A DNA stretch of 64,000 nt. It comes from an uncultured Clostridia bacterium. Lineage in GTDB: Bacteria; Bacillota; Clostridia; Christensenellales; UBA1242. This document shows positions 6,791-40,946 of the stretch, one piece after another. The notes beneath the pieces are model-generated. The model worked only from the letters and a program-made list of their open reading frames with translations, did not search any database and was not told the DNA's origin. The position numbers were made by a program, and so were the translations under genes. The stretch is from the NCBI GenBank assembly GCA_945928645.1, contig CAMENR010000002.1, forward strand, positions 1,048-65,047, written 5' to 3'. Every line of letters starts with the position of its first letter. The stretch's first letter is position 1.

Positions 6791-6932
6791 CTTTTGTAGA
6801 ATAATGTATTTTTATTGTGTTGTGTTATTAAAAATATTTTTTAGTTTAATTTTTTATTAAAAGAAATTTGTAAAAAAAATATCTGGAAAAATAAATTTCA
6901 AATAATTTTTGCTTTCAATCTTTTTGTAAATT

Positions 6933-8024: not shown

Positions 8025-8258
8025 ACAGATATTTTATCACAGTTTGCTTTTTTTTGAAATAGAAATTATCAAACATTTCATTTTTAATTTTTATCACCAT
8101 TTGACTTTTGATAAGATAACTTTTTGTGAATGATAATCAAAATTTTTAATAGTAAGAAGTTTTTGTGGTTATTCCCCTTTTGAATAAAAGATTGGTGGTC
8201 AAAAATAAAAAAATTTTTGAAATTTGCCTTTTGAAAAAGATTTTGTTGACACTAGTCA

Positions 8259-8287
8259 TTGACAATAAAAAATATTTATTGTATTAT
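8259..8287 (+). promoter_or_regulatory. Sigma-70/SigA-type promoter for dnaA
   Basis: TTGACA (8259-8264), a 17-nt spacer and TATTAT (8282-8287). A GGGGGAG RBS lies at 8302-8308 and the ATG at 8311. Confidence 0.55.
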
Positions 8288-8310
8288 TAAATTGTATATA
8301 TGGGGGGAGT

Positions 8311-9657
8311 ATGAACAATTTACTTATCACGTGGAAAGATGTCCTAAAAGAAATGCAAAACCTTGTTACTGCCGTAAGTTATGATCTTTATATCGAAACT
8401 TTGGAGCCTATTAAGTATGAAAATGGCAAACTTGTTCTTTTGGCATCTACAGAGACCAACAAAAATCAACTTATGAAACTTCATTACAACAAACTCCTTG
8501 GGGTGTGCCAAAAACATTATGGCGAGATTGATGAAATGATTATTCTCCAACCTAATGAAGAAAAAGAGTTTTTGGACGAAGTTCGTCAGGCTGAAGAAGA
8601 GTTGAGGATAAAGCAAGAATTTGACGAACGCAACAAACTCAACGAAAAATACACCTTTGACACCTTTGTGGTTGGCAAAAGCAATCAAGTTGTTTACTCT
8701 GCTTGCAAAAATGTTGCCGAAAATCCTGGGAAGAATTTCAATCCACTGTTTATTTATGGTGGTGTGGGGTTGGGCAAAACACACCTTTTGCATGCTATTG
8801 GCAATTATATCAGGAAGACTTTTCCAAAGACAAGGTTGTTGTATGTTACTTGCGAGCAGTTTATGAACGACTTTACAAGGGCAATAAGAGAAAAGACCAA
8901 TGAAGCATTCCGCAAGAAATATCGAGAAGTGGACGTTTTGATGGTAGATGATATTCAGTTTATAGCCAACAAGACGGGGACTCAAGAGGAATTTTTCCAT
9001 ACATTCAATGACCTTTATCAGTTGAACAAGCAAATTGTGCTAGCAAGCGACAAACACCCAAGAAATATGGAAACCTTGGAAGAGCGGTTAAAATCTCGAT
9101 TCACAGGTGGGTTGACACAAGATATTCAGAAACCAGACTTTGAAACTCGACTTGCTATCCTTCAGAAAAAGGTTCAACTGGAAAATTACAATGTAGATCC
9201 AAATGTTCTTATTTTCCTTGCAGAAAGGATTGATAGCAATATAAGAGAGTTGGAAGGAAGTCTTAATAAAGTTGTTTCTCTGTCTATCCTTATGGGCAAA
9301 GAACAAGCGAGTATGTTTGAAGCAGAGGAAGCCTTAAAGGACATTGAATTTGACCGTTCTCAACATCTTACGGTTGACAAAATTATTGATACCGTTTGCA
9401 AATACTACAATGTAAAGCGAAGCGATTTGGTTGGTAAAAAGAAAAACAAAGAGATTGTGGACCCACGTCAAGTGTGTATGTATGTGGCAACCGAATTGCT
9501 TGATGTCCCTCTGATGACCATTGGAGAAATTATGGGAGGCAGAGATCACACCACTGTGATGCATGCAAGAGATAAGATTGCAGACAATATTCGCAAAAAC
9601 AAAGCGCTTAAAACAGAAATTGACGACCTAATCACTATGCTGAAGTCGGAAACATAA
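8311..9657 (+). CDS. dnaA: Chromosomal replication initiator DnaA
   Basis: 448 aa. Motifs seen: AAA+ Walker A GGVGLGKTHLLHA, MVDDIQF and the C-terminal DNA-binding region with ...GGRDHTTVMHARDKI. Confidence 0.98.
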   Translation: MNNLLITWKDVLKEMQNLVTAVSYDLYIETLEPIKYENGKLVLLASTETNKNQLMKLHYNKLLGVCQKHYGEIDEMIILQPNEEKEFLDEVRQAEEELRIKQEFDERNKLNEKYTFDTFVVGKSNQVVYSACKNVAENPGKNFNPLFIYGGVGLGKTHLLHAIGNYIRKTFPKTRLLYVTCEQFMNDFTRAIREKTNEAFRKKYREVDVLMVDDIQFIANKTGTQEEFFHTFNDLYQLNKQIVLASDKHPRNMETLEERLKSRFTGGLTQDIQKPDFETRLAILQKKVQLENYNVDPNVLIFLAERIDSNIRELEGSLNKVVSLSILMGKEQASMFEAEEALKDIEFDRSQHLTVDKIIDTVCKYYNVKRSDLVGKKKNKEIVDPRQVCMYVATELLDVPLMTIGEIMGGRDHTTVMHARDKIADNIRKNKALKTEIDDLITMLKSET

Positions 9658-9727
9658 GGATTTTTGAACAATATCTTTTTTGAAAAAATAGAAAAATGAC
9701 CTTTTGTAAAGGTATAGAAAGATGTGT

Positions 9728-10085
9728 TTGTCCACAATGGGATAGTTATCCCCACGAAATTGTTGACAAAATTATGTTGAAAATAAGCAAAAGAACAATA
9801 AAAAAAGGTTTTTTTGACGAAAAAACAGAGTTTTCCACATTTCCACCGCACTAATAATAACTCTTAAAAAATTTATATTACTATTTGTATACATAATATA
9901 GTAAAACTTAATTGCGAAAAGTCAAAAAAGATGAGTTGTTAACAAAAATATGCACTTATCCACAATGATTGATTGAGAACAATTCACATTGTCAACAACA
10001 AAATATTGTGGTTAAGTTGCTGATAAAGTGGCTGATTTGACACAATATATTGTGCTTTCGGTGGCAAAAAATAAGTTGTGCACAA
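9728..10085. promoter_or_regulatory. oriC candidate: DnaA-box cluster plus AT-rich stretch in the dnaA-dnaN spacer
   Basis: One perfect box, TTATCCACA, lies at 9956-9964. One-mismatch boxes: TTGTCCACA 9728-9736, TTATCCCCA 9746-9754, TTTTCCACA 9831-9839 and TGTGGTTAA (reverse) 10007-10015. The palindrome TTGTGCACAA lies at 10076-10085. A ~60-bp stretch that is AT-rich by eye (9851-9910) sits between the box groups. Confidence 0.6.
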
Positions 10086-10132
10086 CGGAAACGCTACTAT
10101 TATAAATATTTAATAAAAAAAGGAGAAAGAAT

Positions 10133-11239
10133 ATGAAAGTTATGTGCGAGGGGTTAGATTTGAGTGTTGCTACTGCTCAGGTTACAAAGGCAATATCTTC
10201 AAAGACAACTAATCCTGTTTTGGAGGGAATTAAACTAACTGCAGAAAATGACACCCTAAAATTGTCTGCTACAGATTTGGAGTTGGTCATTGAAAAAACT
10301 ATTAAAGCAGAAGTTAAGGTAGAAGGAGAGGCTGTTGTTCCTGGCAAATTCTTTTCGGAGTTTGTCAGAAAGTTGACCAATGATAAGATAGAGTTGGAGT
10401 TGAATGACAAAAATCAACTTAAAATCAATTATACTGACAGCGAAAGTGTTGTTCAATGTTACAATGTAGCAGAATTTCCAAATCTCGAACTTCAGGGTGA
10501 GAAGGAACACTTTGTTTTGAGTAAGAAAGATTTTAAGTCGCTGGTTACAAAATCAATATTTTCAACTGCGCTGGACGACACCAGACCTATCCTAAAAGGT
10601 GTGTGTTTTGAAATTTCAAAGACAGAAATAACTGCTGTTGGTTTGGATGGATACAGGTTGGCATTGGTCAAAAAGCCTGTTAAAGAAAGTTCTGTGGAAA
10701 CAAGGATTGTTGTGCCTGCAAAGAGTTTGACAGAAATATCTAAGTTTTTGGAAGATAGTGATGATGATGTCAAAATTTGTGTGCAGAAAAATTTCCTTAT
10801 GGTAGAGATAGACAATACAAAGATTATTTCTAGGTTGATTGAAGGTGATTTTATCAATTACAGACAGATTGTTCCTACAGAATTTTCTACCAGCATAATA
10901 ATTTCGAGGGCAATGTTTGAAGAAGCAATAGAAAGAAGTTCTATTTTGTCTAGAATTGACAGGAATAATTTGGTAAAATTTGAGATAAAGGAAAAGTTGC
11001 TCACCTTAACATCCAACTCCGACATAGGAAATATCAGAGAGAATATTGGCGTAGCCCTAAAAGGTAATGACCTGACCATTGCATTCAACTCAAGATATTT
11101 TTCGGAAGGGTTGAGGACAATGACTGAGGAGGCAATAAAAATATCTTTTAACACTCCTTCTAGCCCTTGCGTAGTAACTCCGGTGGATAGTGATGAATAC
11201 CTATACCTCATCTTGCCAGTTAGAATAATTACACAATAA
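10133..11239 (+). CDS. dnaN: DNA polymerase III beta sliding clamp
   Basis: 368 aa with a typical three-domain clamp sequence (..TNPVLEGIKLTAENDTLKLSATDLELVIE..). An AGGAGAAAG RBS lies upstream. Confidence 0.96.
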   Translation: MKVMCEGLDLSVATAQVTKAISSKTTNPVLEGIKLTAENDTLKLSATDLELVIEKTIKAEVKVEGEAVVPGKFFSEFVRKLTNDKIELELNDKNQLKINYTDSESVVQCYNVAEFPNLELQGEKEHFVLSKKDFKSLVTKSIFSTALDDTRPILKGVCFEISKTEITAVGLDGYRLALVKKPVKESSVETRIVVPAKSLTEISKFLEDSDDDVKICVQKNFLMVEIDNTKIISRLIEGDFINYRQIVPTEFSTSIIISRAMFEEAIERSSILSRIDRNNLVKFEIKEKLLTLTSNSDIGNIRENIGVALKGNDLTIAFNSRYFSEGLRTMTEEAIKISFNTPSSPCVVTPVDSDEYLYLILPVRIITQ

Positions 11240-20645: not shown

Positions 20646-21434
20646 ATGGGAAAAGTAATTTCATTTGCAAATCAAAAAGGTGGAGTTGGTAAAACAACCA
20701 CTTGTATAAATTTGGCATCTTACCTCGCAGTTTTTGGAAAGAAGGTTTTAATTGTGGATATGGACCCGCAAGGAAATGCGACTAGTGGGCTAGGAGTTGA
20801 CAAGACACAAAAAATGCCAACGATGTATGATGCTATTTCTGGTGAAGCAACAATTTCGGAGGTTATAAGGCCAAGTTTTATCAAAAATTTGGATATAATA
20901 CCAGCCACAGTGGATCTTGCTGGTGCAGAAATTGAACTTGTTGGTATGAAAAACAGGGAAAAAGTTGTTTCAAAACTCTTTGAGAGTATAAAAGATAACT
21001 ATCATTACATTCTAATAGATTGTCCACCATCTTTGGGGTTGCTCACGGTAAATGCGTTGACTTCGTCAGATTCTGTTATGATACCTATTCAATGTGAATT
21101 TTTTGCACTAGAAGGGTTAAGCCAACTTATGAATACTATAAAACTTGTCAAAAAGCATCTTAATCCACAGATTGATGTGGAGGGTGTTGTTTTGACTATG
21201 AAAGACAATAGGTCTAATCTTATTCAGCAGGTTTCGGAGGAAATTCGTAAGTATTTTGGCAAAAAAGTGTATGAAACCGCTATTCCAAGGACAATAAGAC
21301 TAGCAGAAGCCCCAAGTCATGGTAAACCAATATTCTTATATGACCCAAGAGGCAAAGGTGGAGTAGCATATTTTGAACTAGCAAAAGAGTTTATGAAAAG
21401 GAATCGTGACGGTTATAAGAATATAACTATATAG
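20646..21434 (+). CDS. parA: Chromosome partitioning ATPase ParA/Soj
   Basis: 262 aa, with the deviant Walker A motif NQKGGVGKTTT plus IVDMDPQGNAT and LIDCPPSLG. Confidence 0.96.
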   Translation: MGKVISFANQKGGVGKTTTCINLASYLAVFGKKVLIVDMDPQGNATSGLGVDKTQKMPTMYDAISGEATISEVIRPSFIKNLDIIPATVDLAGAEIELVGMKNREKVVSKLFESIKDNYHYILIDCPPSLGLLTVNALTSSDSVMIPIQCEFFALEGLSQLMNTIKLVKKHLNPQIDVEGVVLTMKDNRSNLIQQVSEEIRKYFGKKVYETAIPRTIRLAEAPSHGKPIFLYDPRGKGGVAYFELAKEFMKRNRDGYKNITI

Positions 21435-21753: not shown

Positions 21754-22680
21754 ATGATTATGAAACATGGTCTAGGTAGAGGGCTTGATGCCTTGTTTTC
21801 AATTTATCAAGATGAAGAAGAACAAGAAGTAGAAGAAAAAAAAGAAGGTCGTGTGCAGGTTGGTAATAATGGAGATGAATCTATTGTAAACAGTGGTGTT
21901 GTAGAACTGGATATGAAACTAATCGACCCAAATAAAGAACAGCCAAGGAAGAAATTTGATGTAACTTCCCTGCGTGAATTGACAGAGTCAATAAAGCAAC
22001 ATGGAGTTATTCAACCAATTATTGTAAACAAAACATCAGGCAACAGATATCTTATTGTTGCAGGTGAAAGGAGATTTAGAGCTTGTCTTAATGCTGGGCT
22101 AAAGACTATCCCTGCTATCATTAAGGATTTTAGCAAACAAGAAGTGCAGGAAATTTCTCTTATCGAAAACCTTCAACGTGAGGATCTCAATCCGATAGAA
22201 GCAGGAAAAGCAATTCGCCAACTAATGACTGATTATGGCTTTACACAAGAAGAAATTGCTGACAGGATTGGTAAAAGTCGTCCTCTTGTTGCAAATACAT
22301 TAAGACTACTCACTTTGTCGCCAGAAGTTATTTCTCTTATTGAAAATGGTCAACTTTCTGCCGGACATGGTAAATGTCTTGTAGTTGTTACAGATGAAGA
22401 AAAACAACTTAATCTTGCAAAATTTGCAATTGAAAGAAAACTTTCTGTAAGAGATTTTGAAAAGTTGGTTAAAGATTCGCAAAATGAAAAAATACCAGAA
22501 GCAAAGAAAAAAATTGTTCAAAGCATAGAACTTAAAGAACTTGGACATAGAATTCAAAGGTTATTTAGAACAAAAGTAGTTATCCATGGTGATGATAACA
22601 AAGGAAAGATTTCAATAGACTATTTTAACTCTGATGATTTAGATAGAATTTGCTCCTTTATTTCTAAATTAGAAAAATAA
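21754..22680 (+). CDS. parB: Chromosome partitioning protein ParB/Spo0J (CTPase clamp)
   Basis: Motifs seen: GLGRGLDALF, the arginine patch VAGERRFRAC and LIENLQREDLNPIE. ATG 21760 has better RBS spacing (8 nt from GGAG) than ATG 21754. Confidence 0.96.
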   Translation: MIMKHGLGRGLDALFSIYQDEEEQEVEEKKEGRVQVGNNGDESIVNSGVVELDMKLIDPNKEQPRKKFDVTSLRELTESIKQHGVIQPIIVNKTSGNRYLIVAGERRFRACLNAGLKTIPAIIKDFSKQEVQEISLIENLQREDLNPIEAGKAIRQLMTDYGFTQEEIADRIGKSRPLVANTLRLLTLSPEVISLIENGQLSAGHGKCLVVVTDEEKQLNLAKFAIERKLSVRDFEKLVKDSQNEKIPEAKKKIVQSIELKELGHRIQRLFRTKVVIHGDDNKGKISIDYFNSDDLDRICSFISKLEK

Positions 22681-22785
22681 TTAGAATACTTTAATGCAAT
22701 TTTTAATTAGAATTATATTCATTGCTGTAAAAATAATTTTATTTGATGTCATATAACATAGCAATACATAATGTTTCATGTGATG

Positions 22786-22801
22786 TGTTTCACGTGGAAC
22801 A
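22786..22801 (+). promoter_or_regulatory. parS site (perfect)
   Basis: TGTTTCACGTGGAACA read directly. Confidence 0.9.
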
Positions 22802-22857
22802 TTTTTTTATTATTTTTGTTGTGTTTCACATGGGACAAATCTCTATTATGTCTAACA

Positions 22858-22873
22858 TGTTTCACGTGGAACA
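22858..22873 (+). promoter_or_regulatory. parS site (perfect)
   Basis: TGTTTCACGTGGAACA read directly. Confidence 0.9.
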
Positions 22874-22963
22874 TTTTTTATTGATTCTGATATGTTTCAC
22901 GTGAAGTAACCCTTCGTTAAGTTTAATATGTTTTTAACTTGGTTTTATTTTGTTTTGTTGATA

Positions 22964-22979
22964 TGTTTCACGTGGAACA
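22964..22979 (+). promoter_or_regulatory. parS site (perfect)
   Basis: TGTTTCACGTGGAACA read directly. Confidence 0.9.
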
Positions 22980-23195
22980 ACTATATATTTAATCTAGTAC
23001 GTTTCAGGTGGAATAATTCTCTATTGAGTCTAGTATATTTTACAGGGAAGTTTTTTTGTTATTCTTGATATTTTTCATGTGGAATAATATTTATTATTGA
23101 AATCTAATTTATCTGACTCTTCTAGATAATTATCTATTTATATATTACTTAATAAACTTTTATATAAAAACTTAATCCGCATCTATTGTAATTTT

Positions 23196-23211
23196 TGTTT
23201 CACGTGGAACA
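23196..23211 (+). promoter_or_regulatory. parS site (perfect)
   Basis: TGTTTCACGTGGAACA read directly. Confidence 0.9.
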
Positions 23212-23234
23212 GACTTTTGTTGTATTGGTGATAA

Positions 23235-23250
23235 TGTTTCACGTGGAACA
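23235..23250 (+). promoter_or_regulatory. parS site (perfect)
   Basis: TGTTTCACGTGGAACA read directly. Confidence 0.9.
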
Positions 23251-23430
23251 AGCTTTTGCTGTTTTAGTAAAAATGTTTTATGTGGAACAATGCTCTATTA
23301 ATTTTAGCATGTTTCACATAGAATATCTTTTAATAGATTTAGTATCTTTATTTGGAGTAAGTCTATTATAAAAAAAAATCTATGAATCATATCAATTAAA
23401 TAACCTTATATAAAAAATATATACATATTT

Positions 23431-23446
23431 TGTTTCACGTGGAACA
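23431..23446 (+). promoter_or_regulatory. parS site (perfect)
   Basis: TGTTTCACGTGGAACA read directly. Confidence 0.9.
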
Positions 23447-24419
23447 TCTTACAACTTAAACGTTGTTATAAACATTATCATACAGAAAAATTATAATAAT
23501 CATACTATATATTTAAGTGTTATACTATATGAAAGTATTATAAAATATAGTTATAATAATATAACTAAAATTAATACACAAGCTTTGTCAAAGAGATAAC
23601 TATAGAAATATAAACAAAGAGAGATTATAACTATGATTGATTTATGTTAGATAAAAATATAGTTAAATATATACAAAGTATAACATTTGATTAACAACAA
23701 TATAAAAATTGTAAAATATTTTAACAAATGTAAAAATGGTTGATGAATGGTAAATTGTATAATAGAAGTTTTATCATTTATAATTGCTAGACAATTGATT
23801 ATCAGCGATAATTCGCAAATATAATTTTTATTTTTTTAACAATTTTTGCAATAAATTTTACTATTTTTTTCTTATTTTTTTTATTAACAAAACTACTCTT
23901 TTATATATATTTCTGTTGTTTCTATATGAGAAGCTTGTGTGTATATCAAACTAATTGCAAACAAACATTCCAATATTGCTTAATGTTAGGTTTAGTAGTT
24001 TAAATAGTAATTTCTCAAAAATTTATAAATGAACAAATAGCGTCTTACTTTTAGTGAATGTCTTAAAATTTATGTATAAAAAATTTTGGGATTAAAATGT
24101 AAAAAGTTGTGTATAAATAGTTATCATTGAAGAAAAATGCTCCATTTTATTCAAAAATTGAATGTTTTGACGAGGGAGTTTTGAAGAATGTTTAGGAGAT
24201 TGTAGTTTTTTTGATAAAAAGAAAGTTATCCATAAAACAACAAAAATTGTTGATAACTTATGCTCCGACTTATAGTTTTTTGGTAAAAGGTGAAATTTGT
24301 CAGAAAAACTCTATATATGGGAGGGAATGCGAAAAGTAGAAATATGGACTTTTTGGTCGTAAAAAATATCAATTGATGCACTTTATGGAAAAATTTTGGC
24401 AAAAAGATAATGAATTTTA

Positions 24420-24448
24420 TTGCTTAAAAAATATTTATATGGTAAACT
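24420..24448 (+). promoter_or_regulatory. Candidate promoter for ftsH
   Basis: TTGCTT (24420-24425), a 17-nt spacer ending in TGg, then TAAACT (24443-24448). A GGAGG RBS lies at ~24464 and the TTG start at 24477. Confidence 0.45.
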
Positions 24449-24476
24449 TATTATCGTAAAAATGGAGGAAAATTGA

Positions 24477-26939
24477 TTGAAAAATAACAAATTAAAAGGC
24501 TGGATTATTTTTGCGCTGTCATTTATGGCAATCATTTTGCTATTTTATCTTACGCAAACTGGCAATATCGGGAAAAAGATTGCTATTTCTGGCCCTTCCA
24601 ATGTAGAATCACTGGAATCGCTGGTTGGGGTTAAGAAAGATGCAGAAGGCAAATATGTTGTATCCACTGATATAGACTATGCGGGTAGTGTTGTCAAATA
24701 TATTGCTTTGGCAGATAATGGCATAGGTTATGTTATCAAGAAAGATAGCAAGTATAAAAAAGATGATATCTTGAATAACTGCGACTATTATTTTGAATAT
24801 GTAACAGAATCAGATTATGACCAAGTAAAAGCCATGATAGAAGCCTACAACGCAAAGGCAGAAACAAAAGTTGAAGATGGTTGGGTTTTGATGGAAGCAT
24901 ATCCTACTCATGTATCAAAGACTTCTTGGTGGGAAAGTTTGCTCCCTTATCTTAGTGTAATTGTTGTAGTAGTCTTAGGTGTTATCCTAATAAGAAGTAT
25001 ATTAGGGGCAAACCAAAAGAGTTTCAACTTTGGCAAAACAAAGGCTCAGGTGGCTCACGCAGTAAAAGTGAAATTTGCAGACGTGGCAGGCATTGACGAG
25101 GAAAAGGAAGAACTGCTGGAAATAGTGGAGTTTTTGAAAAACCCACAAAAATTTACTGAACTTGGGGCAAAAATTCCTAAGGGCATCCTTCTAGTTGGTC
25201 AACCAGGGACTGGTAAAACTTTGCTGGCAAAGGCAATCGCTGGCGAGAGCAATGTCCCATTCTTCTCCATAAGCGGAAGTGATTTTGTGGAGATGTTTGT
25301 GGGCGTTGGTGCTTCTCGAGTTAGAGATCTGTTTGAACAAGCAAAAAAAGAAGCCCCTTGCATTGTATTTATTGACGAAATTGATGCTGTGGGCAGACAA
25401 CGTGGCGCAGGACTTGGCGGTGGAAATGATGAAAGAGAACAAACGCTTAATCAACTTCTAGTTCAAATGGACGGTTTTGAGGGGAATACGGGTGTAATTG
25501 TTATCGCTGCAACCAACAGAGCAGATGTTTTGGACCCAGCATTGTTAAGGCCAGGCAGATTTGATAGGCAAATATACATTATGCCACCAGATGTAAAGGG
25601 TAGAGAAATGATTCTCAAAATTCATGCAAGAAACAAGCCAATAGATAGTTCGGTGGATTTTAAGAACATTGCAAGACTTACCAGTGGATTTACTGGTGCA
25701 GACTTGGAAAACCTCTTGAATGAGGCGGCAATTCTTACAGCAAGGGAAAGTAGAAAGTCTATAACAATGACGGATATCACAGAGGGCATAAACAAGGTTA
25801 TTATGGGACCTCAAAAACGAAGTAGAATTGTAACCCCTGTGGACAAGAGAATTACTGCTTACCACGAAAGTGGTCATGCAATAGTGGGCAAGGTATTAAC
25901 ACATTGTGATGTAGTGCAAGAAGTTTCTATCATTGCAAGGGGAATGGCTGCCGGATATACCATAAGCAGACCGGACAACGACGAAAGTCATATGTCCTAT
26001 AACAAACTTATAGACAATATTACAATGATGTTGGGTGGTAGAGCAGCAGAAGAAATAATGGTCAAAGACATCTCAACAGGCGCTCAAAACGACATAGAAA
26101 GGGCAACCAAACTAGCGAGAAAAATGGTTACCGAATGGGGAATGAGTGCAAAGTTGGGACCTGTGAATCTAGGCTCTAGCAGTGAGGTGTTTTTGGGTAG
26201 AGATTATCAAAGTCAACTAAACTACAGTGAAAAAACTGCCAGTGAAATTGACAACGAGATAAAATCAATTATTGATATGTGCTACTCTCGAGCCAAAGAA
26301 ATAATAACCAAACACGCAAAACAAATGAACACGATGGTGGAAGTTCTGCTAGAAAAAGAAACAATTTACTTTGGCGAAGTGGAGATGATTATGAAGGGCA
26401 AAACTACCAAACAAATATTGCTTCAAATGGAACAAGATGCCATAAGGAACAAAGAGCGTGTAGAGTTGGAGAGAGCAGAGGCTGACCTTGAAAGAGTGAG
26501 AAAAGAACAATCAATAAGGGTAAAAACGGCTGAGGCATTGAAAAAAGGTGGTGTTCTCTCTGCAGAGGAAATAGAAAAGGTGGCAAAAGATTCTGAAAAT
26601 ATCATTGCCATTGCAGAGAAGAAAGTAAACGAACTAAAACAAAAACTTGCAGAAAAATATGCCAAAACAGAACAAACAAAACAAAAAACATCAAAGTCTG
26701 CAGAGAAGAAAGAAAAAAATTCTGACAATAAAAAATCAACAAAATCCACAACTACAAAGAATGCAAAAGCAAAAACGGAAAAACAAAAGAGCCTAAATAA
26801 GCCTACCAATGTTGATAGTAAAAAAATCAAAATAAAAAGTATTGAGGCAAAAGGTAATAATGTGGAAGGGGAAAAAGTAGTTAACAGTATGTCAGGAGAG
26901 ACAGAAGACATAAATAAGAAAAATGGCGACAAAAATTGA
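24477..26939 (+). CDS. ftsH: ATP-dependent zinc metalloprotease FtsH, with a large extracytoplasmic loop and a ~180-aa K/E-rich C-terminal tail
   Basis: 820 aa. It has two TM segments flanking a ~125-aa loop, Walker [14 protein letters not shown], the SRH region and the zinc motif HESGHA. The tail from about residue 640 is lysine- and glutamate-rich low complexity. Confidence 0.96.
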
Positions 26940-31748: not shown

Positions 31749-32102
31749 GTGTATAAATGACACAACTCGCATTTTTGCTAGGCATATACAAATTATCTTT
31801 CAAACTAACATTGTTTTGATTTTTTTAATCTTTTATTTTTTTGACAGAAAAATTATTTATTTTTTTTGCAAAAAATGTTATGCTTTTTTTGGGATTATAT
31901 AAAAATTTTTTATCCTTTTTTTGTCAAAATCTATTGTAATTTATTTGGTAAAAATTGAAGATACTATTATAATAAGATTGTAATATTATATTCAATAATA
32001 TGCTATGCAACTTTTTGGGAATAACTGGTCGGGCGATTAATCCTGCAGGTTAAGAGTAATTTGCAAGATCGTCGGTTGGCAGGTCTAAAAGGAGATAACC
32101 AA

Positions 32103-35100
32103 ATGTTTATAACAAAATTCAAAAAAAATAAAATGAATTTTTTGGGCAAAATAGTGGGTTTGTGTTTTATGGCGCTGTGCGTGTGTGCACCGTCCTTTTT
32201 TGGTTTGTTTAGAAAAGAGACATTTGCTTTGTCAAAAAATGTAACCAACATTTCTAGCACAACATCTCTCACTGCTGGCTCTAAAGTGTATTTTGGTGAA
32301 TACCCACAAGATTCGGTTATCAAGGTTAGTGAAGAAACTGGTTGGGAAAAATTAACAATTGTAGATTCAAATGGTAGTTATAACGCAGTTAAACCTTTGG
32401 AGGTTGGTGTAAACAAAAATAGCATAGTGGCACATAATACCATTAAGGGATATATTGAAGAATTGCTAAAGGTGGAATATGGCGATGATTATCAATGGCA
32501 TTATACCACTGTAGGCAAATTCACACCAAGAAGAAGTTGCCAAACAGACAAAATTTCGTACGATTACATAACAGGCTATTATACTTTGCTGGTTGATGTA
32601 ATAGAAAACACATTCACTGGCGATGCAAATACCAAAGTAACATATCCTGCAGGGTCAAAATTCTATGCCTACAACAGAGTTGTAGATGCGCTGAACAAGT
32701 ATTATAGGGTAGAGGTTGATGAAACAGCATCATCATGGAATCCTGAAAGTCCTAATAAAATATCCACTTATCTTACTGGGAAAACAAAAGAGACTCAAAA
32801 TGGTAAGTGGGTAATGAGGGTTGCTGAAACCCCAGATGAAGCTTCAATAAGAATGAACTCGGAACGAGATTATATTTGGGACCCTGGAAACTACTATTTG
32901 CTAAAAAAGAATGAGGGAAGATACTTTGTCAATGATAGTGGCTATTATTTTGATAAAGCAAAAAGTGATGTTAATTATGGCGAGATAACCATGCACGGTT
33001 ATGACAAGTTTTTAGATAACGAGGTAGTAGATAGCGAAGCATATGAGCAAACAGGCACTGGTCCTAGTGGGATATTTCTATTTGAAGTAAAGCCTATAGA
33101 GTGGACGGTGTTTAATTCTAGTCAATTGAGTGTTAATTTGGAAAATAGTAATGAATGTGTAACACTAGTGTCTAGTCAAATAATAGATTCCAATGCCCTC
33201 AACTACGACCAATGGAAATATACAAGCAATTTATTTTATTCATTTGGTTCTCGTTATGATAATAGTAATTTGAAAGCTTGGCTTAATGCAAAAGGCTCTC
33301 TTACAACAGATATAGAAAGTGTTGACCTTACTCTTAAGAATGACTCAACTACATACACAGACACATATTACCAAAGCAAGCGAACATTTTTACCCATGGC
33401 TTTTGGGGGAAAAGCAGAGAGTTTGAAACTTTTTACCCATAAATCAGTAAGTATTCAAGCGCGAGTAGGGCTATTGTCATCAGAAGAGATACAAAACAAC
33501 AACTTAAAATTGGCAACAAAAACTCAATACTCTTTGGCTTGTGGGGACCAAGGGGAAACTACTTGGGGATCTTGGCTGTTTTCTCAGTCGGATTCTGATG
33601 GAAGCAATTTTTGTTATGGAGCAAATGGGTATGTTGAATCTGGATCTGTATTTACTGTTTATGGTGTAAGGCCTGTGATATGCCTTAAGAAATCTGAATT
33701 TTATGCAGATACAAATGTAGGGCAAATTGAAGCAAATGAGGTGCTAAACATTAGCACTCCATTAGAGTTGGGTGGCAGTGTAAATGTGGCTGGATATACA
33801 GAAACAATACCAAATTTGTTGCAGTTTGCAACTGCTGAAAGTGGGATAGGCTCGATTGAAAGTGGTTCTCTTGAAATAAAGCAATCGGATATAACAGGAA
33901 AGAACTACAGTGTTACTGCCAAGAATTTTGTGGTAACTACGAAAAACTATGATCCATATACAAAAGATTCTCAGCCTACTATACCCGTTTCTGCTGTGTC
34001 TGGATTTATTGTAGCAGGAATAAAATCTTACGAAGTAGGCGAAAAGAATATCACCGATAGCGACTGCCCATACACTGTTTCGTTTGTTCCGATAACCTCA
34101 TTTTTGGGGACTGGACAAAGTCCTATAAGCAACAGCATAAATTATCTTTCGGGGCAATTTGTGATGGATTATTACCTTATCTTTCAAGGGGATATCTATC
34201 TTATCAATCCAGAAGATGTAACCAACCCCAACATCTACATAAGCGAAAGTGGCTCGGCTAGTAACTCTGGAAGATCTACCAGCGAACCTGTTCCCCTATC
34301 TGTTGCACAGAAGTTGGCTGGCAATGATGTGGGGGTGGATACTGGGAATATGTCCACATTGATATTCCTAGAGAACAGAGAGTTTAGCAACAGAGAGTTG
34401 AAATTTAATTATCCTGTAGTCTTTAACTCAAATACGGCAAACGGAACATTTATCACCGTAACAAGTGGAACTGTAACTTTTGAAAATATTATCTTTGATG
34501 GACAAAACAAATCAAGGACTACTGCAGGGATAAGGATAAAAGATGTCGCAAATTCTATATTCAATAATTGTAAAGTTATCAATTTTGTCAACTCATCTGG
34601 CAATGGGGGTGGAATATCAGTAGGTGTCGGATCGACTATAAGCAGTGCAGGAGACAGTATACTAGAACTCTCCAATAACAAAGCAAAAAAAGGTGCTGGA
34701 ATGTATTGTGAGGGGACGTTGAATGTAGACAAACTTATCCTTACAAACAATATGGCTACTGGAAGTACTGAAGGAGGGGCTCTTTATGTTTCTGGTGGTG
34801 TTGAAGTAAAGAGTATTGAGGCGTCAGGAAATATTGCAAACGGAATAACCTCTTGCATATTTGCAAAAGATTCTAGCGGAGGGAATAATACCTTTAGAAT
34901 TACAGATACTTTGCATATTCACGATAACAAAGGTTATATTAAAGGTGATAATACATATTATTCATCTTCCGCTGTTTATATAGAGGGTTACAAAGTAAAT
35001 ATTATCAATCCCAAATTTGAGAAAAACGAAAATTCTATTGCATCATTGTTCCTTAATGGGTGTTATTTGATGGCAGACGGAACGCCAACTTTGCAAGGGA

Positions 35101-38100
35101 ATAGCAGTGAAAACAAAGGGTTATTCACCCAAAACTACAACAAGGATGCCGGTCAGAATTATGCTGGTGCAATCTATGTGTCTGACAATGGCAAAAGTGA
35201 TTGCTCATATATCTTCTCAAATATTTCCTTTGACAACAACGGTGCGGACAATGGTTATGGGGCAGTGCTGGTTGTTGGGAAATATATCGATAATGAGGTT
35301 ACATTTAATAATTGCTCCTTTAGCAATAACAAGGGGGTATATTGTGGTGGACTGGCATTTTATCAAGCACAGAATACTGAGATGTCGGGCAACTTTAGAG
35401 TTATTAACTGCACATTTAGTGGCAATGAGGCAACAAGCCAAGATGAGCCTACAGAGCAGAGCAATGCAAGGAGTGTTGCTGGTGCATTGGTTGTTCAACA
35501 TAGAGATAACTCTGCCAATGTGTCCGTTGAGATATCAAATGCAACATTTACAAAGAACAAATCTACAAAATATGGTGTTGCAAAGTTTGACCTAAAGGAA
35601 GAAGATGCAATAATTATAAGTAATTTAACATTGGGTGGAGATTTGATAGATGAAAATGACAAAGCAAACATCTCAAATATATCTACTCAAGCAGGAGCAT
35701 TGTTTGCAATAAATGGGACTAGGAAAGAGGCAAACACGACAGCATTTTCAATAGACAATTTTATTGCCAAAAACAATGGCAATGCGGGAGATGTATTATT
35801 TGCAACAGAGGGAGTTTTGGAAATAAGCAATGTTAATCCAACCGATGGAAATTTGCTAAAAAATTGTCAATTTGTCAACAACGAATCAGTGTCTTCTGGT
35901 GGTGCAGTAATTATTAAGGATAGCTCGGGCAAGATAGAAAATAGCTTTTTCAGTGGTAACAGCGTAAGGGTTACAAAAAATGACAATTCAACAACCTATG
36001 TTGGAGGAGGTGCTATATATATCACCAGTCAAAGTTATACCTGCAATGTGGATATTTCAAAAACCACTTTTGTGGACAACATTGTTAATTTAGACGGAAG
36101 TGGGGAATGTGTTGCAGGCGGAGGTGCTGTGCTTGCCAACAAATCTCTTTTGACTTTGACAGACGTTTATGCCAAAAACAACAAAGTAATAACTAATGGT
36201 GAAAATCAAACTGCAAAAGGTGGTGCTGTTTGCTCTTATGGCAATACACAAACAACGGGGGTTCAATACATTACACAATGCCAGCACACTACTCCTTGTG
36301 TTGTGATAAATGGTGGACATTATGAGTCCAATTCGGCAGTTGTCGTTGGAGATACTTATTCTTATGGTGGTGTTATTTGGGGTGATTGTGTCAAAATATT
36401 AAGTGGTAGTGCAAGTGCTGGCTGTGATAGCAACAACATATCCACAGAAAATGGACAAGCAAAATTTATTTCTAATAGTGCAATTTATGGTGGTGGGGTG
36501 TATACTTCCAATTGCCTAGAAATAGACAACAAAGACAGTAGTGATTTAGTAGCATTGTTTGACGGAAATGAAGCAACTCACGGTGGAGCAATCAACGCAC
36601 ATGGTGTGGCGATAATTGACGGTGGAAAATTTACAAACAACGTTGCAAAAAATGTTAATGACGATAGTGCAACCTATGGTAATGGCGGTGCAATCCTCTT
36701 TGAAAACAGTGAGCAGAAGGTCAAATTCTCTAATTATCCAACAGAATTAAGCACTGGTGACTATTCTTATTATGCATTGCCTATGTATGCAAAGATTGTT
36801 AGAGCAGAGTTTTATGACAATAGTGCTGTGCAAGGCGGAGCGATTTATTCAAGCAGCGCTTTAACTCATGGTGTCAACAGTGTGTTTGCAAAAGGCTCTA
36901 TGCTAGAAATTGTGGGTGAAGACAAACAAGGAGAGTCGCAGTATTCTGTAATAATTCAAAATAATTCCGCAAAGAATTATGGTGGTGGTATATATGCCTA
37001 TTCTCCTGTAAAAATGAAGAACATAAAGATAAATGGCAATCAAGCATTTAGTGGTTCTGTAATATATTTTGACAATCAACATCAAAAGTATAGCATTGCA
37101 GATAAAGAGTTTGTGGCAAGTGATAAAGTAGAGATTTCAAACATTATGTTTGAGGGGAACATTTCCTCGTCTGTTGGTGTAATTCAGGCAACCAAGAATA
37201 TTGATATAACTATAACAAATGGTAACTTTATCAACAATAAAAATGGCGGTGCAATACTCAACTTTGTTGGAACAGCCAACGGAAATAATGGGCAAGGACT
37301 AGGCTCTGGAACACTGCAAAACTGCACCTTTAGTGGCAATATCGGTTTTGTTAACACTATGGAAAATTATGAAGGCGATGTGATAAAGGTTGCTGATTGT
37401 GAGGTGGCAATAAACGACTGCACTTTTGGTCAAAATGGCGATAAAAATCTTGCTCATTATGGCACAGTTTTGGTGGTTGCAGAGGGGAGTGTAGTTTATC
37501 TAAATAATGTTATTGCCAACGGAACAGCAGGCAATAAAATAGCCAATACAGAGGGACTTATTTGGGTTCAAAACAACGGAACACTAAAAGCAAAAGGTGG
37601 GCAAATATCCTATTTGTCGGGGGTAAATGGTAGCGTTGCTGTGATAAATGGCAAGGCATCTTTTGACGAGATAAACATTAGCAATTGCTCTGTAACAGGT
37701 AATGGCGGTGCAATATATGTTGCAAACGGTGGGGATTTGTCTTTTGCTGGCAGTATTGCTAGTTGTTCTGCAACAGGTAATGGTGGTGCAATATATGTCG
37801 AAGACGGGGCTTGTGCTCTGATTTCGGGTAAACTTAAATTAGACTCAACATACTCTCAATGCAATATAACAGATTGTTCTGCCCAATATGGTGGTGGATT
37901 ATTTGCAAACGGTGATGTTGTAGTGCAACATGCAACTATTTCTGGCAATTCGGCAACAAAAAGTGGCGGTGGAATATTTGCCAACAACAATAGTTCTCTT
38001 ATAATAGGTATTGATTCAAATATTTTGAACAACACAATAAATGTAGCAAGTGGGGGAGGAAATACAGAAAAATATTACGGTGCAGGCGTTTATGCCAAAG

Positions 38101-40946
38101 GTCAACTGTATATCTCTGATGCAACTATTTCTGGCAACAATTTTAGTTCAACAACAAACACCTTTGGTGGTGGATTGTATACAGAAAATATCTCTTTTGA
38201 GATAATCAATACCTCTTTCCAAGGGAACAATGCTGGAGTAGGTGGGGCAATATTTTCAACTGGTGGTGTAGTAGATTTGCAATATTGCAACTTTATAGGA
38301 AAGATAGTAGGTTCAGAAGCCAAAACAAATAACACCGTAAAATTGTCAAATTGCTATGCCAACATATATGAGTGTAAGTTTGAAAATATTTCTTCAAATG
38401 AAGAAGCCAGTGCAATTGTCCTTGACGGAGGAAGTTGCATTATGCAAAATTGTCTTTTTGATAACAACAGTTTTGCAGGAAGTAAAGATACAAACAAAGG
38501 CACTGTATATTCCGCAGGCGTCTTGCTAGAAATGGCTGGATGTTCGTTTACAGATAACGGAACAAATGGTGTTTTGTCCAACCTTTATTATAATAACAAT
38601 AAAGGTAGCGCAAGGCTGGTTGATTGTTCATTCACAAACGGAAATGCTAGTGGAAATGAAAACAGTGTAACAATAATCACTCCAAATGTTTGGGTAGAAA
38701 ACTGCACTTTTGACAACAACAAAGACGGAGGTTTGTTGCTACAAGTAAAATATGCAGTAGTGGCAAACTGCTATTTCTATGCAAACGAAAAGAATGGTGG
38801 TCTGAAGGTTAAATCTATTGAAAATGGAGTGAATGCAAATATAGAAATTTTGGATAGTTATTTCTTGAAGGGTCTTTCTAACAAAGCAAATAGTTCTGAG
38901 TCTTTTGGCGGTGCAGTGTTTGTTGAACAATATTGCAATGTAAGACTTACTGGAATATTTGAAGCGAAAGAAAACACTTCTAATAATGGTGGTGCGATAT
39001 ATGTTTCAACTGGTGCAAAATTATATATCACAAGAAACTCCAAAGTAAATATTGTTGGTAATACAACATCAAGCAATGAAAGCAACCTTTTGCTCGCTGG
39101 TGAAAATTTGCTAGTTCTTGAAGGTGGGTTGCTAGAAGGAAGTAGCATAGGCATTTCGCTTGCCAGCGGGAACGTTGTTGCAACCAATGGAGGATATCCT
39201 ATAGAGAGTGCTGACGTAAACAAGTTGTTTAGCGATAGCAAATCACACTTTTTGTGCTATTCTGACAGCGACAACAGAGTGTATAAAAAAGCAATTACTA
39301 CGGAAACAACAGATTATTATTACCAAGTAACCGTTGGAACAACTTATTATACCCCAAAGAGTGATATAATATTGACCTATTCTCAAATGCCAAAAGATGG
39401 TTTTACATTGGACAAAAGTTACTTTAAGGCCTATGTAAAAAATGGTGAGGAACTAAAAGAAGTGGAAATAGTGGAGATTGTCTTCCAATCCAAATCAGGA
39501 GAATTGTATGGGGAAGAAAAAAGCGGAAGAATAAAAATCACTCAAAAGGGAAATCAAACAATAAAATTCCTTATTAAAACAGTAAAAGATGGCGAGGAGG
39601 AGATAACTCTGGGCGATGGGCTTGGTGGTGATGTTATTGTAAATGTTGTTGGAGAATATTTGTATATAATTTCCACTCCACAGGCTACTATGACCGCCAA
39701 AAAAATCAATACATTTAAGATAATTCAAGCAGGCAATGTGATAGGTAGCAGTGGGCAGGCAATCGCAGGAATTTGGAGTCTTGTTTCGGGAGAAAATATA
39801 GAAAAATCAGGTTATTACGAGTGCAAATTTACTCCAAAACAGTCTGATTTGTATGAAAATGCAAGCAACCTAATTTCTACAATGTATGTCAATGTGGTCT
39901 ATGACAAGGTGTATTATTTTAATAGCACAAAAAATGGCTTTTTTGCAGACAGCGAGGGCAGTGTAAAACTGGACGGGGTAACTAATATCTCAGGTGCATT
40001 GTCGTTGCTCAACGATAACGGAACTATTGTCTTTATGGATACATATGTTGTAAACACTTCGGAAAATATTGTTGCAACAAAGAGGGTGAATTTTGTAAGA
40101 CAAAAAACAGATAAAGACTTTGCAATGATAGAAATTTCGGCGGATAATACATTGTATATTGCTGGACAAAATGTAGAAATTGTGTTTGACGGAAATGAGA
40201 TAAACAAAGTAAATTTCCCTGCATTTGTTGTTGGTGGAACACTCAGTTTGGGAGATAATGTGGTGGTTCGCAACTTTGAATATTTGTCAACTGAATCATC
40301 TTCCAAATTTGGAGTAATTTGCAATCTTGGAACGCTCATTCTGCAAGGGTGCAAAATATACAACAACAAGGCACTATCTTCTTCAAACAGTCAAGGTGGG
40401 GCAATATATAATGAGGGCTCAATGAATATAATGGCAGGCGAGTTTTACAACAACACAGCAGTCGGCTCTGGCAAGGGTGGATTTGTGTATTCCAAAGGAA
40501 AACTAATGGTTTCTGGTGGAAGAATTTACAACAATGCAAGTGCCTTTGGCGCAGGGATTTATGTGGCAAATGGTGGGTCGGCAAATCTTGTTGGGGGATA
40601 TATTACACAGAATTATGCAACAACCAATGGCGGTGGAGTGTATGTGGAAAATGGTGGCAAATTGTCGTTGGGTTCTACACAAATTTTATCCAACAAATCA
40701 GAGTCGCTGGGTGCTGGAGTTTATAAGGCTGATGGTGGAATTGTATTGCTGTCTTCCGGCGAAGAAATTGCTGGCTCGACCATTCAGTCTGTAGAGGAGA
40801 ATAACATTCCATTTGCTACAAACAATCAGTCAGAAGAATCAACTTGGGTAGTCATTTTGGGTGCAATTGCAATGATTTTGGCTACAGCAATAATGATGTT
40901 CCTACTCAAAAAATCGCAAAAAGTTTATCTTTACAAACTAAAATAA
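32103..40946 (+). CDS. Giant secreted surface protein (2,947 aa): signal peptide, split DUF6273-like module, PMP-type parallel beta-helix repeats, C-terminal membrane anchor
   Basis: An AAAGGAGA RBS precedes ATG 32103; the track's extension to 32061 has no RBS. The signal peptide is MFITKFKKNKMNFLGKIVGLCFMALCVCAPSFFG. About 30 GG[AG][ILV][YFL] motifs paired with FxxN motifs lie between ~34.4-39.2 kb and 39.95-40.8 kb. The protein ends in WVVILGAIAMILATAIMMFLLKKSQK. Confidence 0.9.
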   Translation: MFITKFKKNKMNFLGKIVGLCFMALCVCAPSFFGLFRKETFALSKNVTNISSTTSLTAGSKVYFGEYPQDSVIKVSEETGWEKLTIVDSNGSYNAVKPLEVGVNKNSIVAHNTIKGYIEELLKVEYGDDYQWHYTTVGKFTPRRSCQTDKISYDYITGYYTLLVDVIENTFTGDANTKVTYPAGSKFYAYNRVVDALNKYYRVEVDETASSWNPESPNKISTYLTGKTKETQNGKWVMRVAETPDEASIRMNSERDYIWDPGNYYLLKKNEGRYFVNDSGYYFDKAKSDVNYGEITMHGYDKFLDNEVVDSEAYEQTGTGPSGIFLFEVKPIEWTVFNSSQLSVNLENSNECVTLVSSQIIDSNALNYDQWKYTSNLFYSFGSRYDNSNLKAWLNAKGSLTTDIESVDLTLKNDSTTYTDTYYQSKRTFLPMAFGGKAESLKLFTHKSVSIQARVGLLSSEEIQNNNLKLATKTQYSLACGDQGETTWGSWLFSQSDSDGSNFCYGANGYVESGSVFTVYGVRPVICLKKSEFYADTNVGQIEANEVLNISTPLELGGSVNVAGYTETIPNLLQFATAESGIGSIESGSLEIKQSDITGKNYSVTAKNFVVTTKNYDPYTKDSQPTIPVSAVSGFIVAGIKSYEVGEKNITDSDCPYTVSFVPITSFLGTGQSPISNSINYLSGQFVMDYYLIFQGDIYLINPEDVTNPNIYISESGSASNSGRSTSEPVPLSVAQKLAGNDVGVDTGNMSTLIFLENREFSNRELKFNYPVVFNSNTANGTFITVTSGTVTFENIIFDGQNKSRTTAGIRIKDVANSIFNNCKVINFVNSSGNGGGISVGVGSTISSAGDSILELSNNKAKKGAGMYCEGTLNVDKLILTNNMATGSTEGGALYVSGGVEVKSIEASGNIANGITSCIFAKDSSGGNNTFRITDTLHIHDNKGYIKGDNTYYSSSAVYIEGYKVNIINPKFEKNENSIASLFLNGCYLMADGTPTLQGNSSENKGLFTQNYNKDAGQNYAGAIYVSDNGKSDCSYIFSNISFDNNGADNGYGAVLVVGKYIDNEVTFNNCSFSNNKGVYCGGLAFYQAQNTEMSGNFRVINCTFSGNEATSQDEPTEQSNARSVAGALVVQHRDNSANVSVEISNATFTKNKSTKYGVAKFDLKEEDAIIISNLTLGGDLIDENDKANISNISTQAGALFAINGTRKEANTTAFSIDNFIAKNNGNAGDVLFATEGVLEISNVNPTDGNLLKNCQFVNNESVSSGGAVIIKDSSGKIENSFFSGNSVRVTKNDNSTTYVGGGAIYITSQSYTCNVDISKTTFVDNIVNLDGSGECVAGGGAVLANKSLLTLTDVYAKNNKVITNGENQTAKGGAVCSYGNTQTTGVQYITQCQHTTPCVVINGGHYESNSAVVVGDTYSYGGVIWGDCVKILSGSASAGCDSNNISTENGQAKFISNSAIYGGGVYTSNCLEIDNKDSSDLVALFDGNEATHGGAINAHGVAIIDGGKFTNNVAKNVNDDSATYGNGGAILFENSEQKVKFSNYPTELSTGDYSYYALPMYAKIVRAEFYDNSAVQGGAIYSSSALTHGVNSVFAKGSMLEIVGEDKQGESQYSVIIQNNSAKNYGGGIYAYSPVKMKNIKINGNQAFSGSVIYFDNQHQKYSIADKEFVASDKVEISNIMFEGNISSSVGVIQATKNIDITITNGNFINNKNGGAILNFVGTANGNNGQGLGSGTLQNCTFSGNIGFVNTMENYEGDVIKVADCEVAINDCTFGQNGDKNLAHYGTVLVVAEGSVVYLNNVIANGTAGNKIANTEGLIWVQNNGTLKAKGGQISYLSGVNGSVAVINGKASFDEINISNCSVTGNGGAIYVANGGDLSFAGSIASCSATGNGGAIYVEDGACALISGKLKLDSTYSQCNITDCSAQYGGGLFANGDVVVQHATISGNSATKSGGGIFANNNSSLIIGIDSNILNNTINVASGGGNTEKYYGAGVYAKGQLYISDATISGNNFSSTTNTFGGGLYTENISFEIINTSFQGNNAGVGGAIFSTGGVVDLQYCNFIGKIVGSEAKTNNTVKLSNCYANIYECKFENISSNEEASAIVLDGGSCIMQNCLFDNNSFAGSKDTNKGTVYSAGVLLEMAGCSFTDNGTNGVLSNLYYNNNKGSARLVDCSFTNGNASGNENSVTIITPNVWVENCTFDNNKDGGLLLQVKYAVVANCYFYANEKNGGLKVKSIENGVNANIEILDSYFLKGLSNKANSSESFGGAVFVEQYCNVRLTGIFEAKENTSNNGGAIYVSTGAKLYITRNSKVNIVGNTTSSNESNLLLAGENLLVLEGGLLEGSSIGISLASGNVVATNGGYPIESADVNKLFSDSKSHFLCYSDSDNRVYKKAITTETTDYYYQVTVGTTYYTPKSDIILTYSQMPKDGFTLDKSYFKAYVKNGEELKEVEIVEIVFQSKSGELYGEEKSGRIKITQKGNQTIKFLIKTVKDGEEEITLGDGLGGDVIVNVVGEYLYIISTPQATMTAKKINTFKIIQAGNVIGSSGQAIAGIWSLVSGENIEKSGYYECKFTPKQSDLYENASNLISTMYVNVVYDKVYYFNSTKNGFFADSEGSVKLDGVTNISGALSLLNDNGTIVFMDTYVVNTSENIVATKRVNFVRQKTDKDFAMIEISADNTLYIAGQNVEIVFDGNEINKVNFPAFVVGGTLSLGDNVVVRNFEYLSTESSSKFGVICNLGTLILQGCKIYNNKALSSSNSQGGAIYNEGSMNIMAGEFYNNTAVGSGKGGFVYSKGKLMVSGGRIYNNASAFGAGIYVANGGSANLVGGYITQNYATTNGGGVYVENGGKLSLGSTQILSNKSESLGAGVYKADGGIVLLSSGEEIAGSTIQSVEENNIPFATNNQSEESTWVVILGAIAMILATAIMMFLLKKSQKVYLYKLK

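Follow-up and report, generated by a model that had tools for sequence, protein, structure and literature searches.

Tandem amplification and decay of parS sites beside parB in the chromosomal origin region of an uncultured Clostridia bacterium

The window analysed here, a 64-kb stretch of DNA from an uncultured Clostridia bacterium, is a chromosomal origin region in which gyrA, gyrB and recF lie on the minus strand and are followed by dnaA, dnaN, yidC, jag, mnmE, mnmG, rsmG, parA and parB. After parB comes a gene-free gap of 1.8 kb that ends at ftsH, and the first 0.77 kb of this gap holds a dense array of parS, the 16-bp site of the ParB partition protein. The 64 kb were searched for the canonical parS 16-mer, TGTTTCACGTGGAACA, with up to 3 mismatches allowed. 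Six exact copies were found (22786, 22858, 22964, 23196, 23235 and 23431), together with six parS-like copies carrying 2-3 mismatches (22822, 22893, 23000, 23071, 23274 and 23310), all on the plus strand and all at the positions given in the initial annotation of the window. These 12 distinct sites lie inside 22786-23446, about 0.66 kb. Outside the array the window holds just two further TGTTTCACGTGGAACA matches, each with 3 mismatches, and shuffled windows gave a mean of 0.73 and a maximum of 5 such matches over their whole length. The reverse complement of the array 16-mer, TGTTCCACGTGAAACA, fits TGTTNCACGTGAAACA, the universal chromosomal parS consensus (Table 1, PMC7022226), as the description of the repeats as Bacillus-type parS had implied. 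With six exact copies of TGTTNCACGTGNAACA and six more at 2-3 mismatches, the repeats are, judged by sequence, canonical parS. Orientation is uniform across the copies and is set by T5 and G12 of the site; because parS is a near-palindrome, the exact copies double as 2-mismatch matches on the minus strand. The features of the array are as follows.

22770-22813, plus strand: hairpin between a left half-parS remnant (22772-22782) and the right half of the first complete parS (terminator scan, RNA fold).
22786-22801, plus strand: exact parS, block 1 unit 1 (16-mer search).
22822-22837, plus strand: parS-like, 2 mismatches, TGTTTCACATGGGACA; perfect (TGTTTCACGTGAAACA) in the same-species contigs L127, L129 and L132.
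22858-22873, plus strand: exact parS, block 1 unit 3 (16-mer search).
22893-22908, plus strand: parS-like, 3 mismatches, right arm decayed (16-mer search).
22929-22944, plus strand: in-phase unit whose parS is eroded past recognition, 11 mismatches (mismatch count).
22964-22979, plus strand: exact parS, block 1 unit 6 (16-mer search).
23000-23015, plus strand: parS-like, 3 mismatches (16-mer search).
23036-23051, plus strand: decayed in-phase parS remnant, 6 mismatches (mismatch count).
23071-23086, plus strand: parS-like, 3 mismatches, closing block 1 (16-mer search).
23087-23195, no strand: AT-rich 109-bp gap separating the blocks, its position kept among strains (sequence and strain alignment).
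23196-23211, plus strand: exact parS, block 2, 39-bp unit (16-mer search, Tandem Repeats Finder).
23235-23250, plus strand: exact parS, block 2, 39-bp unit; the unit is missing from L129 (search and alignment).
23274-23289, plus strand: parS-like, 2 mismatches (16-mer search).
23310-23325, plus strand: parS-like, 3 mismatches (16-mer search).
23431-23446, plus strand: exact parS, isolated final copy; degenerate (TGCTTCACTTGGAACA) in L128 and L129 (search and strain comparison).

The first remnant, at 22772, begins 92 bp past the end of parB (22680), as originally described, and the units begin 92-106 bp after parB. In block 1 (22786-23086) the start-to-start intervals are 36, 36, 35, (36, 35), 36 and (35/36, 35/36) bp. 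The blocks are 125 bp apart, start to start; the intervals in block 2 (23196-23325) are 39, 39 and 36 bp, and the last copy, at 23431, is isolated by 121 bp from the start at 23310. The measured spacings and the T5/G12 orientation bear out the earlier account of a single orientation, 35-39-bp phasing and two blocks. Four further remnants had been proposed. Those at 22772 and at 23036 (not 23035) are still recognisable, with 6 mismatches each, and those at 22929 and 23346, with 11 mismatches each, are in phase and unidentifiable on their own. The repeats are thus degenerate, with 0-11 mismatches to parS. Tandem Repeats Finder reported periods of 71 bp (22786-22933), 36 bp (22965-23035) and 39 bp (23196-23290), and a repeat search found a five-unit, 178-bp higher-order duplication (22781-22909 against 22959-23087, 71% identity). 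The spacers fall into two classes, one T-rich (T) and one of the form CTCTATT..GTCTA (C), and related spacers reach 80% identity. The two classes agree with the proposal of alternating related spacers; strict alternation does not hold, the order in block 1 being T, C, T, C, T, C, C, T, with one break.

Same-species contigs from other samples were then compared: L001, L002, L127 (GCA_019973095.1), L128, L129 and L132, with ParB proteins 97-100% identical. A metagenome scan with ParB yielded two close relatives, L132, which is partial and in which the array was seen, and L133, which stops within parB. Position and orientation of the array are unchanged in the contigs from other samples. L001 and L002 have the array of the window, the last interval differing by 2 bp, and homologous but differing arrays are present in L127, L128, L129 and L132. 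The array is no assembly artefact, a refuting possibility named at the outset, because independent assemblies from other samples reproduce it. By alignment, L127 is missing a 36-bp unit as well as about 220 bp of block 2, L129 is without one 39-bp unit, and L132 carries one extra unit. Which copies are intact differs by strain, and the number of perfect sites is 6 in the window, 4 in L128, 3 in L129, 2 in L127 and at least 5 in L132 (partial). Among five strains, pairwise divergence was 8.2% for parS columns and 8.3% for spacers, compared with 10.5% for third codon positions of parB and 1.8% for first and second positions; the parS positions varying most were C8 and G9, at the centre of the site. 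No extra constraint on individual sites is detectable, a result that is indicative only, coming from five related strains. Given the repeat structure and the strain polymorphism, the array is the product of tandem amplification followed by decay, with duplication, deletion and mutation in balance, and the earlier suggestion of a ~72-bp higher-order unit that was amplified and then decayed is sustained by the 71-bp period, the 178-bp duplication and the variation among strains. The unit indels, the varying intact copies and the equal divergence of parS and spacers argue that individual sites are redundant and are turned over by duplication and decay; a turnover close to neutral is argued from the same divergence figures and from the range of 2 to at least 6 perfect sites.

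In the course of this comparison it was observed that many public contigs encoding this ParB are merely 1-3 kb long, and that some of the contigs fetched end in or soon after the parS array (L002, L132) or a parS cluster (L005, L006). It seems that the repeat causes short-read assemblies to break up at the origin.

The genes and intervals that bear on the setting of the array are these.

8311-9657: dnaA (gene annotation).
9728-10015, no strand: DnaA-box cluster of five TTATCCACA-like boxes between dnaA and dnaN, candidate oriC (motif search).
10133-11239: dnaN (gene annotation).
20646-21434, plus strand: parA, a soj-type Walker ATPase of 262 aa with KGGVGKT (Pfam AAA_31, 4.8e-71, plus CbiA/ParA).
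21754-22680, plus strand: parB, chromosomal ParB/Spo0J (Pfam ParB_N, HTH_ParB, ParB_C).
23447-24476, no strand: AT-rich non-coding stretch of about 1 kb from the array to ftsH (no open reading frame (ORF) of 60 aa or more, no Rfam match).
24477-26939, plus strand: ftsH, with AAA and Peptidase_M41 domains, the downstream neighbour bounding the gap throughout the clade.

The DnaA-box cluster, a switch in the sign of the GC skew at about 6-8 kb of the window, and the gene order together place the array near the origin, about 12.8 kb from the probable oriC in the dnaA-dnaN gap, close to the ~13 kb of the initial annotation. ParB carries a GERRFRA box for cytidine triphosphate (CTP) binding in ParB_N, a parS-type helix-turn-helix and a C-terminal dimerisation domain. 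Its true start is likely M3, at 21760, because its homologues are 306 aa long. The solved structures nearest to it are ParB/Spo0J proteins of M. xanthus, T. thermophilus, B. subtilis, H. pylori and C. crescentus, with Noc ranking behind. ParB scored 195.7 with NCBIfam TIGR00180 (parB_part), above the cut-off of 58, and 225.8 with the Noc model, under the cut-off of 315. No match to the Noc-binding site (NBS) ATTTCCCGGGAAAT at up to 2 mismatches was found in the 64 kb, and on these two grounds nucleoid-occlusion sites for Noc were rejected. The plasmid SopA and RepA equivalog models score ParA far under their cut-offs (66.9 against 725 for SopA). The sequence features expected of a chromosomal ParABS locus are present: a matching 16-mer, cognate ParB domains, a Soj-type ParA, an origin-proximal site and syntenic sites in relatives. 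There is no parS site inside the parB of the window.

Other functions were looked for in the gap. A 14-bp hairpin with a T-run behind it (-17.5 kcal/mol, z = -4.4) forms between the half-site at 22772 and the right half of the first parS (22786). Nothing else in 22400-24600 scored as terminator-like, and the hairpin segment is near-invariant in four strains; the first parS and its upstream half-site likely double as an intrinsic parB terminator. Rfam at gathering threshold gave zero matches in the whole window, and at E<=1 only meaningless plant and animal miRNA models matched 22600-24520, leaving a structured RNA unsupported. Promoter-like matches were not enriched (17 found, 19.3 expected). 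Small ORFs over the array (22743-22904, 22928-23068 and 23195-23371) were rejected as coding: their TTG or ATG starts lie inside repeats, the 35-bp units disrupt the frame, and strain indels fall in the same region.

Relatives at the genus level, among them one in assembly GCA_050872785.1, were used to ask how the array arose. Those with 81-83% ParB identity (L003, L004, L130 and L131) have 3-4 parS-like sites directly after parB, 58-113 bp apart, with one gap of 233 bp in L004. Relatives at 64-68% identity (L151-L155) have 3-4 perfect parS in the parB-ftsH gap, 145-410 bp apart. Because relatives across 64-83% ParB identity hold 3-4 sites, several parS in the parB-ftsH gap is the ancestral state. 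The dense array is confined to the species, so that the possibility raised earlier, that relatives commonly carry it, holds within the species and fails for genus-level relatives. The 36-bp tandem array is, on this comparison of sequences, specific to this species and would represent compaction and amplification of the ancestral loose cluster.

In L003 and L004 all parS sites have a CATGTG core variant on the same strand, which suggests that they arose by local duplication of one mutated site. The non-palindromic CATGTG replaces CACGTG in each parS after parB (L003:6977-7120, L004:6941-7316), and no perfect parS was found within about 6 kb on either side of parB in these two contigs. The CATGTG core, like the variable C8 and G9, could reflect a CG-specific mutational bias, perhaps through methylation or deamination, or a change in the specificity of ParB. 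These contigs also encode, between the parS cluster and ftsH, a 156-aa protein (L003:7468-7938, L004:7473-7943) that matched no NCBIfam family. At the corresponding position in the window, 23447-24476, there is no ORF of 60 aa or more, although no search for a gene remnant was made; the lineage in which the array was amplified may have lost the 156-aa gene.

Chromosomal parS sites had been portrayed as single and scattered, and the array as exceptional beside them. This overstated the case, given the 3-4 sites of the relatives, at least 120 loci with close pairs and the 22 sites of M. xanthus. Those loci came from many phyla in a GTDB scan, one genome per species, for pairs of parS separated by 15-45 bp, and close parS pairs are common across bacteria. 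Among the matches listed, three loci have at least 6 perfect sites in 700 bp: L093, a Bacilli metagenome-assembled genome (MAG) in which recF-gyrB-gyrA is followed by 10 parS at a 44-45-bp period (5922-7979); L100, from Parcubacteria, with a 3-site module repeated three times after gyrA (7008-7813); and L088, a Moraniibacteriota MAG with a dense, irregularly spaced cluster (6414-7911). A further locus, L035, from an Eubacteriales MAG, has five parS spaced 33-35 bp in the rsmG-parA interval, within the promoter region of parA (3544-3694). The tandem arrays of L093, L100 and L035 are origin-proximal, belong to unrelated lineages and have periods of 33-50 bp. Fifteen phage-classified contigs in IMG/VR (L156-L170) have 3-8 consecutive perfect parS that recur regularly every 33-55 bp. 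In L169 there are eight, 38 bp apart (6137-6460); L163 has four at 35-36 bp, with array sequence at 7102-7224 and 9020-9071 and a terminase large subunit 1 kb away. In the stretches fetched, a ParB-like gene was present in L157 only and ParA in none. These phage arrays may be host-centromere mimicry by episomal phages. In the unbiased range of 31-61 bp, spacings under 35 bp are nearly absent among natural arrays, and the density of the array in the window is therefore near the natural maximum.

Published accounts point the same way. M. xanthus has 22 parS within about 3 kb, some 4 kb from parA (PMC3899335); most species are credited with 1-4 sites and a few with at least 20 in the survey of Livny et al. 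2007, as cited in PMC3899335; and parS sites of gut bacteria are 'mostly clustered' (PMC10197239). A full-text search found, within the library searched, no description of a natural chromosomal tandem parS array like this one. Dense parS clusters and iterated centromeres are already known, and the array is a locally amplified, fast-changing ordinary centromere and not a new kind of element.

Comparison with characterised systems sharpens this placement. With the chromosomal clusters of M. xanthus, Caulobacter, P. aeruginosa, C. glutamicum and Streptomyces (the last four in Table 1 of PMC7022226) the array shares the 16-bp parS, several copies near parAB and a place in the origin domain. Where characterised, such clusters are bound by CTP-dependent chromosomal ParB, and ParB binding is predicted here. 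Sites are about four times denser in the array, one per 36-55 bp, where M. xanthus has one per about 140 bp. The M. xanthus sites occur as forward, reverse and palindromic copies across 3 kb; here the units are strictly head-to-tail, with related spacers and nested higher-order repeats, and about half are visibly decaying. B. subtilis has 10 dispersed parS, 8 of them in the origin domain, with the consensus TGTTNCACGTGAAACA (PMC7022226). The array shares with it the site (TGTTCCACGTGAAACA, read on the minus strand), the Soj/Spo0J protein family and a place near the origin. In B. subtilis, by contrast, single sites stand tens of kb from one another, one of them within spo0J, whereas in the 64 kb seen here they are packed into 0.66 kb. 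The arrays of L035, L093, L100, L163 and L169 likewise have canonical parS in regular tandem units of 33-55 bp; they differ in having independent origins, with other spacers, periods and neighbours, and most are shorter and have perfect copies.

A similar layout is that of sopC of the F plasmid, where a 43-bp direct repeat occurs 12 times and every copy includes a 16-bp inverted repeat to which SopB binds (PMC3177203). Direct tandem repeats, one 16-bp inverted-repeat site in each, and a position directly 3' of a parB-family gene are shared, although two interruptions and decayed units make the array less regular than sopC. One repeat is reported to be enough for sopC function, so most of its copies are redundant. 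The array differs from sopC in being chromosomal, in using the universal parS 16-mer, in its 35-39-bp units, in being far less homogeneous and in its short Soj-type ParA. The core chromosomal synteny, the SopA score and the universal parS set it apart from plasmid centromeres of this type, and it is most aptly classed as an ordinary parB-adjacent chromosomal centromere in a sopC-like, tandemly amplified form.

We consider it highly probable that the array is the chromosome's parB-adjacent centromere, a set of ParB loading sites whose individual copies are redundant and undergo birth-death turnover. The 12 same-orientation parS matches in 0.66 kb, against 0.73 expected window-wide, and the canonical parA-parB pair in mnmE-mnmG-rsmG-parA-parB origin synteny support this reading. 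By extension from the ParABS clamp mechanism established elsewhere (PMC7053999, PMC8367383, PMC8299390), each intact 16-mer would bind one ParB dimer through the helix-turn-helix, binding would trigger CTP-dependent closure of the ParB clamp, and the closed clamp would slide onto flanking DNA. Accumulated ParB would then form a partition complex to be acted on by ParA and probably SMC. The array itself would have arisen when an ancestral cluster of 3-4 sites was compacted and amplified into ~36-bp units (a 16-bp site plus a ~20-bp spacer) with nested 71- and 178-bp repeats. Slippage or unequal recombination would gain and lose whole units, and point mutation would erode single sites, the central CG especially. 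If one or a few sites suffice, copies could drift near-neutrally while the locus keeps several perfect sites. In vivo one parS is sufficient in several model species (PMC8299390, PMC4368675), and in vitro more parS raise loading and condensation (PMC8299390). ParB binding and loading at the array, and any quantitative benefit of many sites, we infer by analogy.

Several points weigh against this reading. ParB binding and localisation are predicted for an uncultured organism represented by metagenomes. The array may not be the dominant parS locus of the genome, of which 64 kb are in view. Half of the copies carry 2-3 mismatches, some in the CACGTG core, and may fail to bind ParB. Occupied sites 20 bp apart might hinder clamp escape, and flux need not scale with the number of copies. 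Finally, the equal divergence of parS and spacers comes from five related strains with non-independent counts, and it could reflect weak, diffuse constraint on the whole array.

A different account of the same array is that its amplification was selected for higher loading of ParB-CTP (and SMC), with copy number and phasing tuned, as implied when the initial annotation called it a 'super-centromere'. Condensation force and loading rate do climb with parS number in vitro (PMC8299390), every sampled strain retains an array at this place, independent tandem phased arrays exist on chromosomes (L035, L093 and L100) and phage contigs, and the near absence of spacings below ~33-35 bp hints at a structural lower bound. 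Nevertheless, strains with 97-99% identical ParB range from 2 to at least 6 perfect sites and gain and lose whole units, parS columns are no better conserved than spacers, genus-level relatives use 3-4 looser sites, some with zero perfect ones, and a lone parS is sufficient in vivo in several model species (PMC8299390, PMC4368675). We regard this adaptive account as unlikely; the 'super-centromere' interpretation outruns the evidence, and a 'very high' ParB/SMC loading capacity, or selection for it, is too strong a claim here.

An operator or terminator array for parAB or ftsH, or a set of sites for a different CACGTG-binding protein, with ParB incidental, is very improbable. The strong hairpin and T-run at the first site, the T-rich spacers after several sites and the similar array in the parA promoter region of L035 would suit such a role, but all six exact copies match parS over the full 16-mer, beyond the CACGTG core, and the cognate parB adjoins them. 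There is one terminator-like structure only, promoter-like matches are no more frequent than expected, and the array comes after the par operon, at 1 kb from ftsH. That the array is not a real feature of this kind, being instead an assembly artefact, a clustered regularly interspaced short palindromic repeat (CRISPR)-like array, a miniature inverted-repeat transposable element (MITE) or an integrated plasmid or phage centromere, is effectively refuted. The short ParB-bearing contigs are what is expected where repeats break assemblies, and the layout does resemble plasmid sopC (PMC3177203). Yet two independent assemblies have the same array, apart from the 2-bp difference, and four more strains have homologous ones; the array is flanked by core genes of the chromosome whose synteny is conserved, and ParA and ParB match chromosomal and not plasmid models. 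The interrelated spacers and degenerate repeats are unlike CRISPR, which was rejected on the degenerate repeats, the two spacer classes and the lack of any cas-like domain in the neighbouring genes scanned; MITE and integrated plasmid were also rejected as the identity of the array.

The parB-adjacent centromere reading leaves the established ParABS picture unchanged and adds an architectural variant to it, and the value of the array is chiefly in its density and its strain-level dynamics. If it loads ParB from a dozen sites 20 bp apart, the array is a natural test of whether loading flux scales with site number, and also of whether occupied neighbouring sites obstruct the escape of ParB-CTP clamps. 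Both questions have until now been approached mainly with engineered substrates carrying several parS (PMC8299390). The gain and loss of units among strains shows that bacterial centromeres can evolve by amplification and decay, as do plasmid iterons and eukaryotic satellite centromeres. We put forward only tentatively, as possible but doubtful, a wider reading: a recurrent, independently evolved sopC-like architecture of chromosomal centromeres, with periods of ~33-55 bp, birth-death turnover, a ~33-35-bp bound set by the space a ParB dimer needs, mimicry by phages, and the array in the window among the densest and most dynamic examples. If it were true, the strain polymorphism would be a natural experiment on the number of loading sites needed. 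In practice, such arrays break short-read assemblies beside parB, and they mark the origin region in MAGs.

Elsewhere in the window, recF-gyrB-gyrA is opposite in strand to dnaA-dnaN, the two groups diverging from the origin (827-11239) in an unusual gene order; each group is therefore co-oriented with its own replichore. A gene-free stretch of 1.3 kb lies at 5657-6932. Further downstream are two giant tandem genes on the plus strand, at 32061-40946 and 41176-64000. The first encodes 2961 aa, with DUF6273 as its sole Pfam match, and the second is a frame of at least 7608 stop-free codons that continues past the end of the window and has a right-handed beta-helix at residues 1012-1177. Both are probably huge surface proteins.

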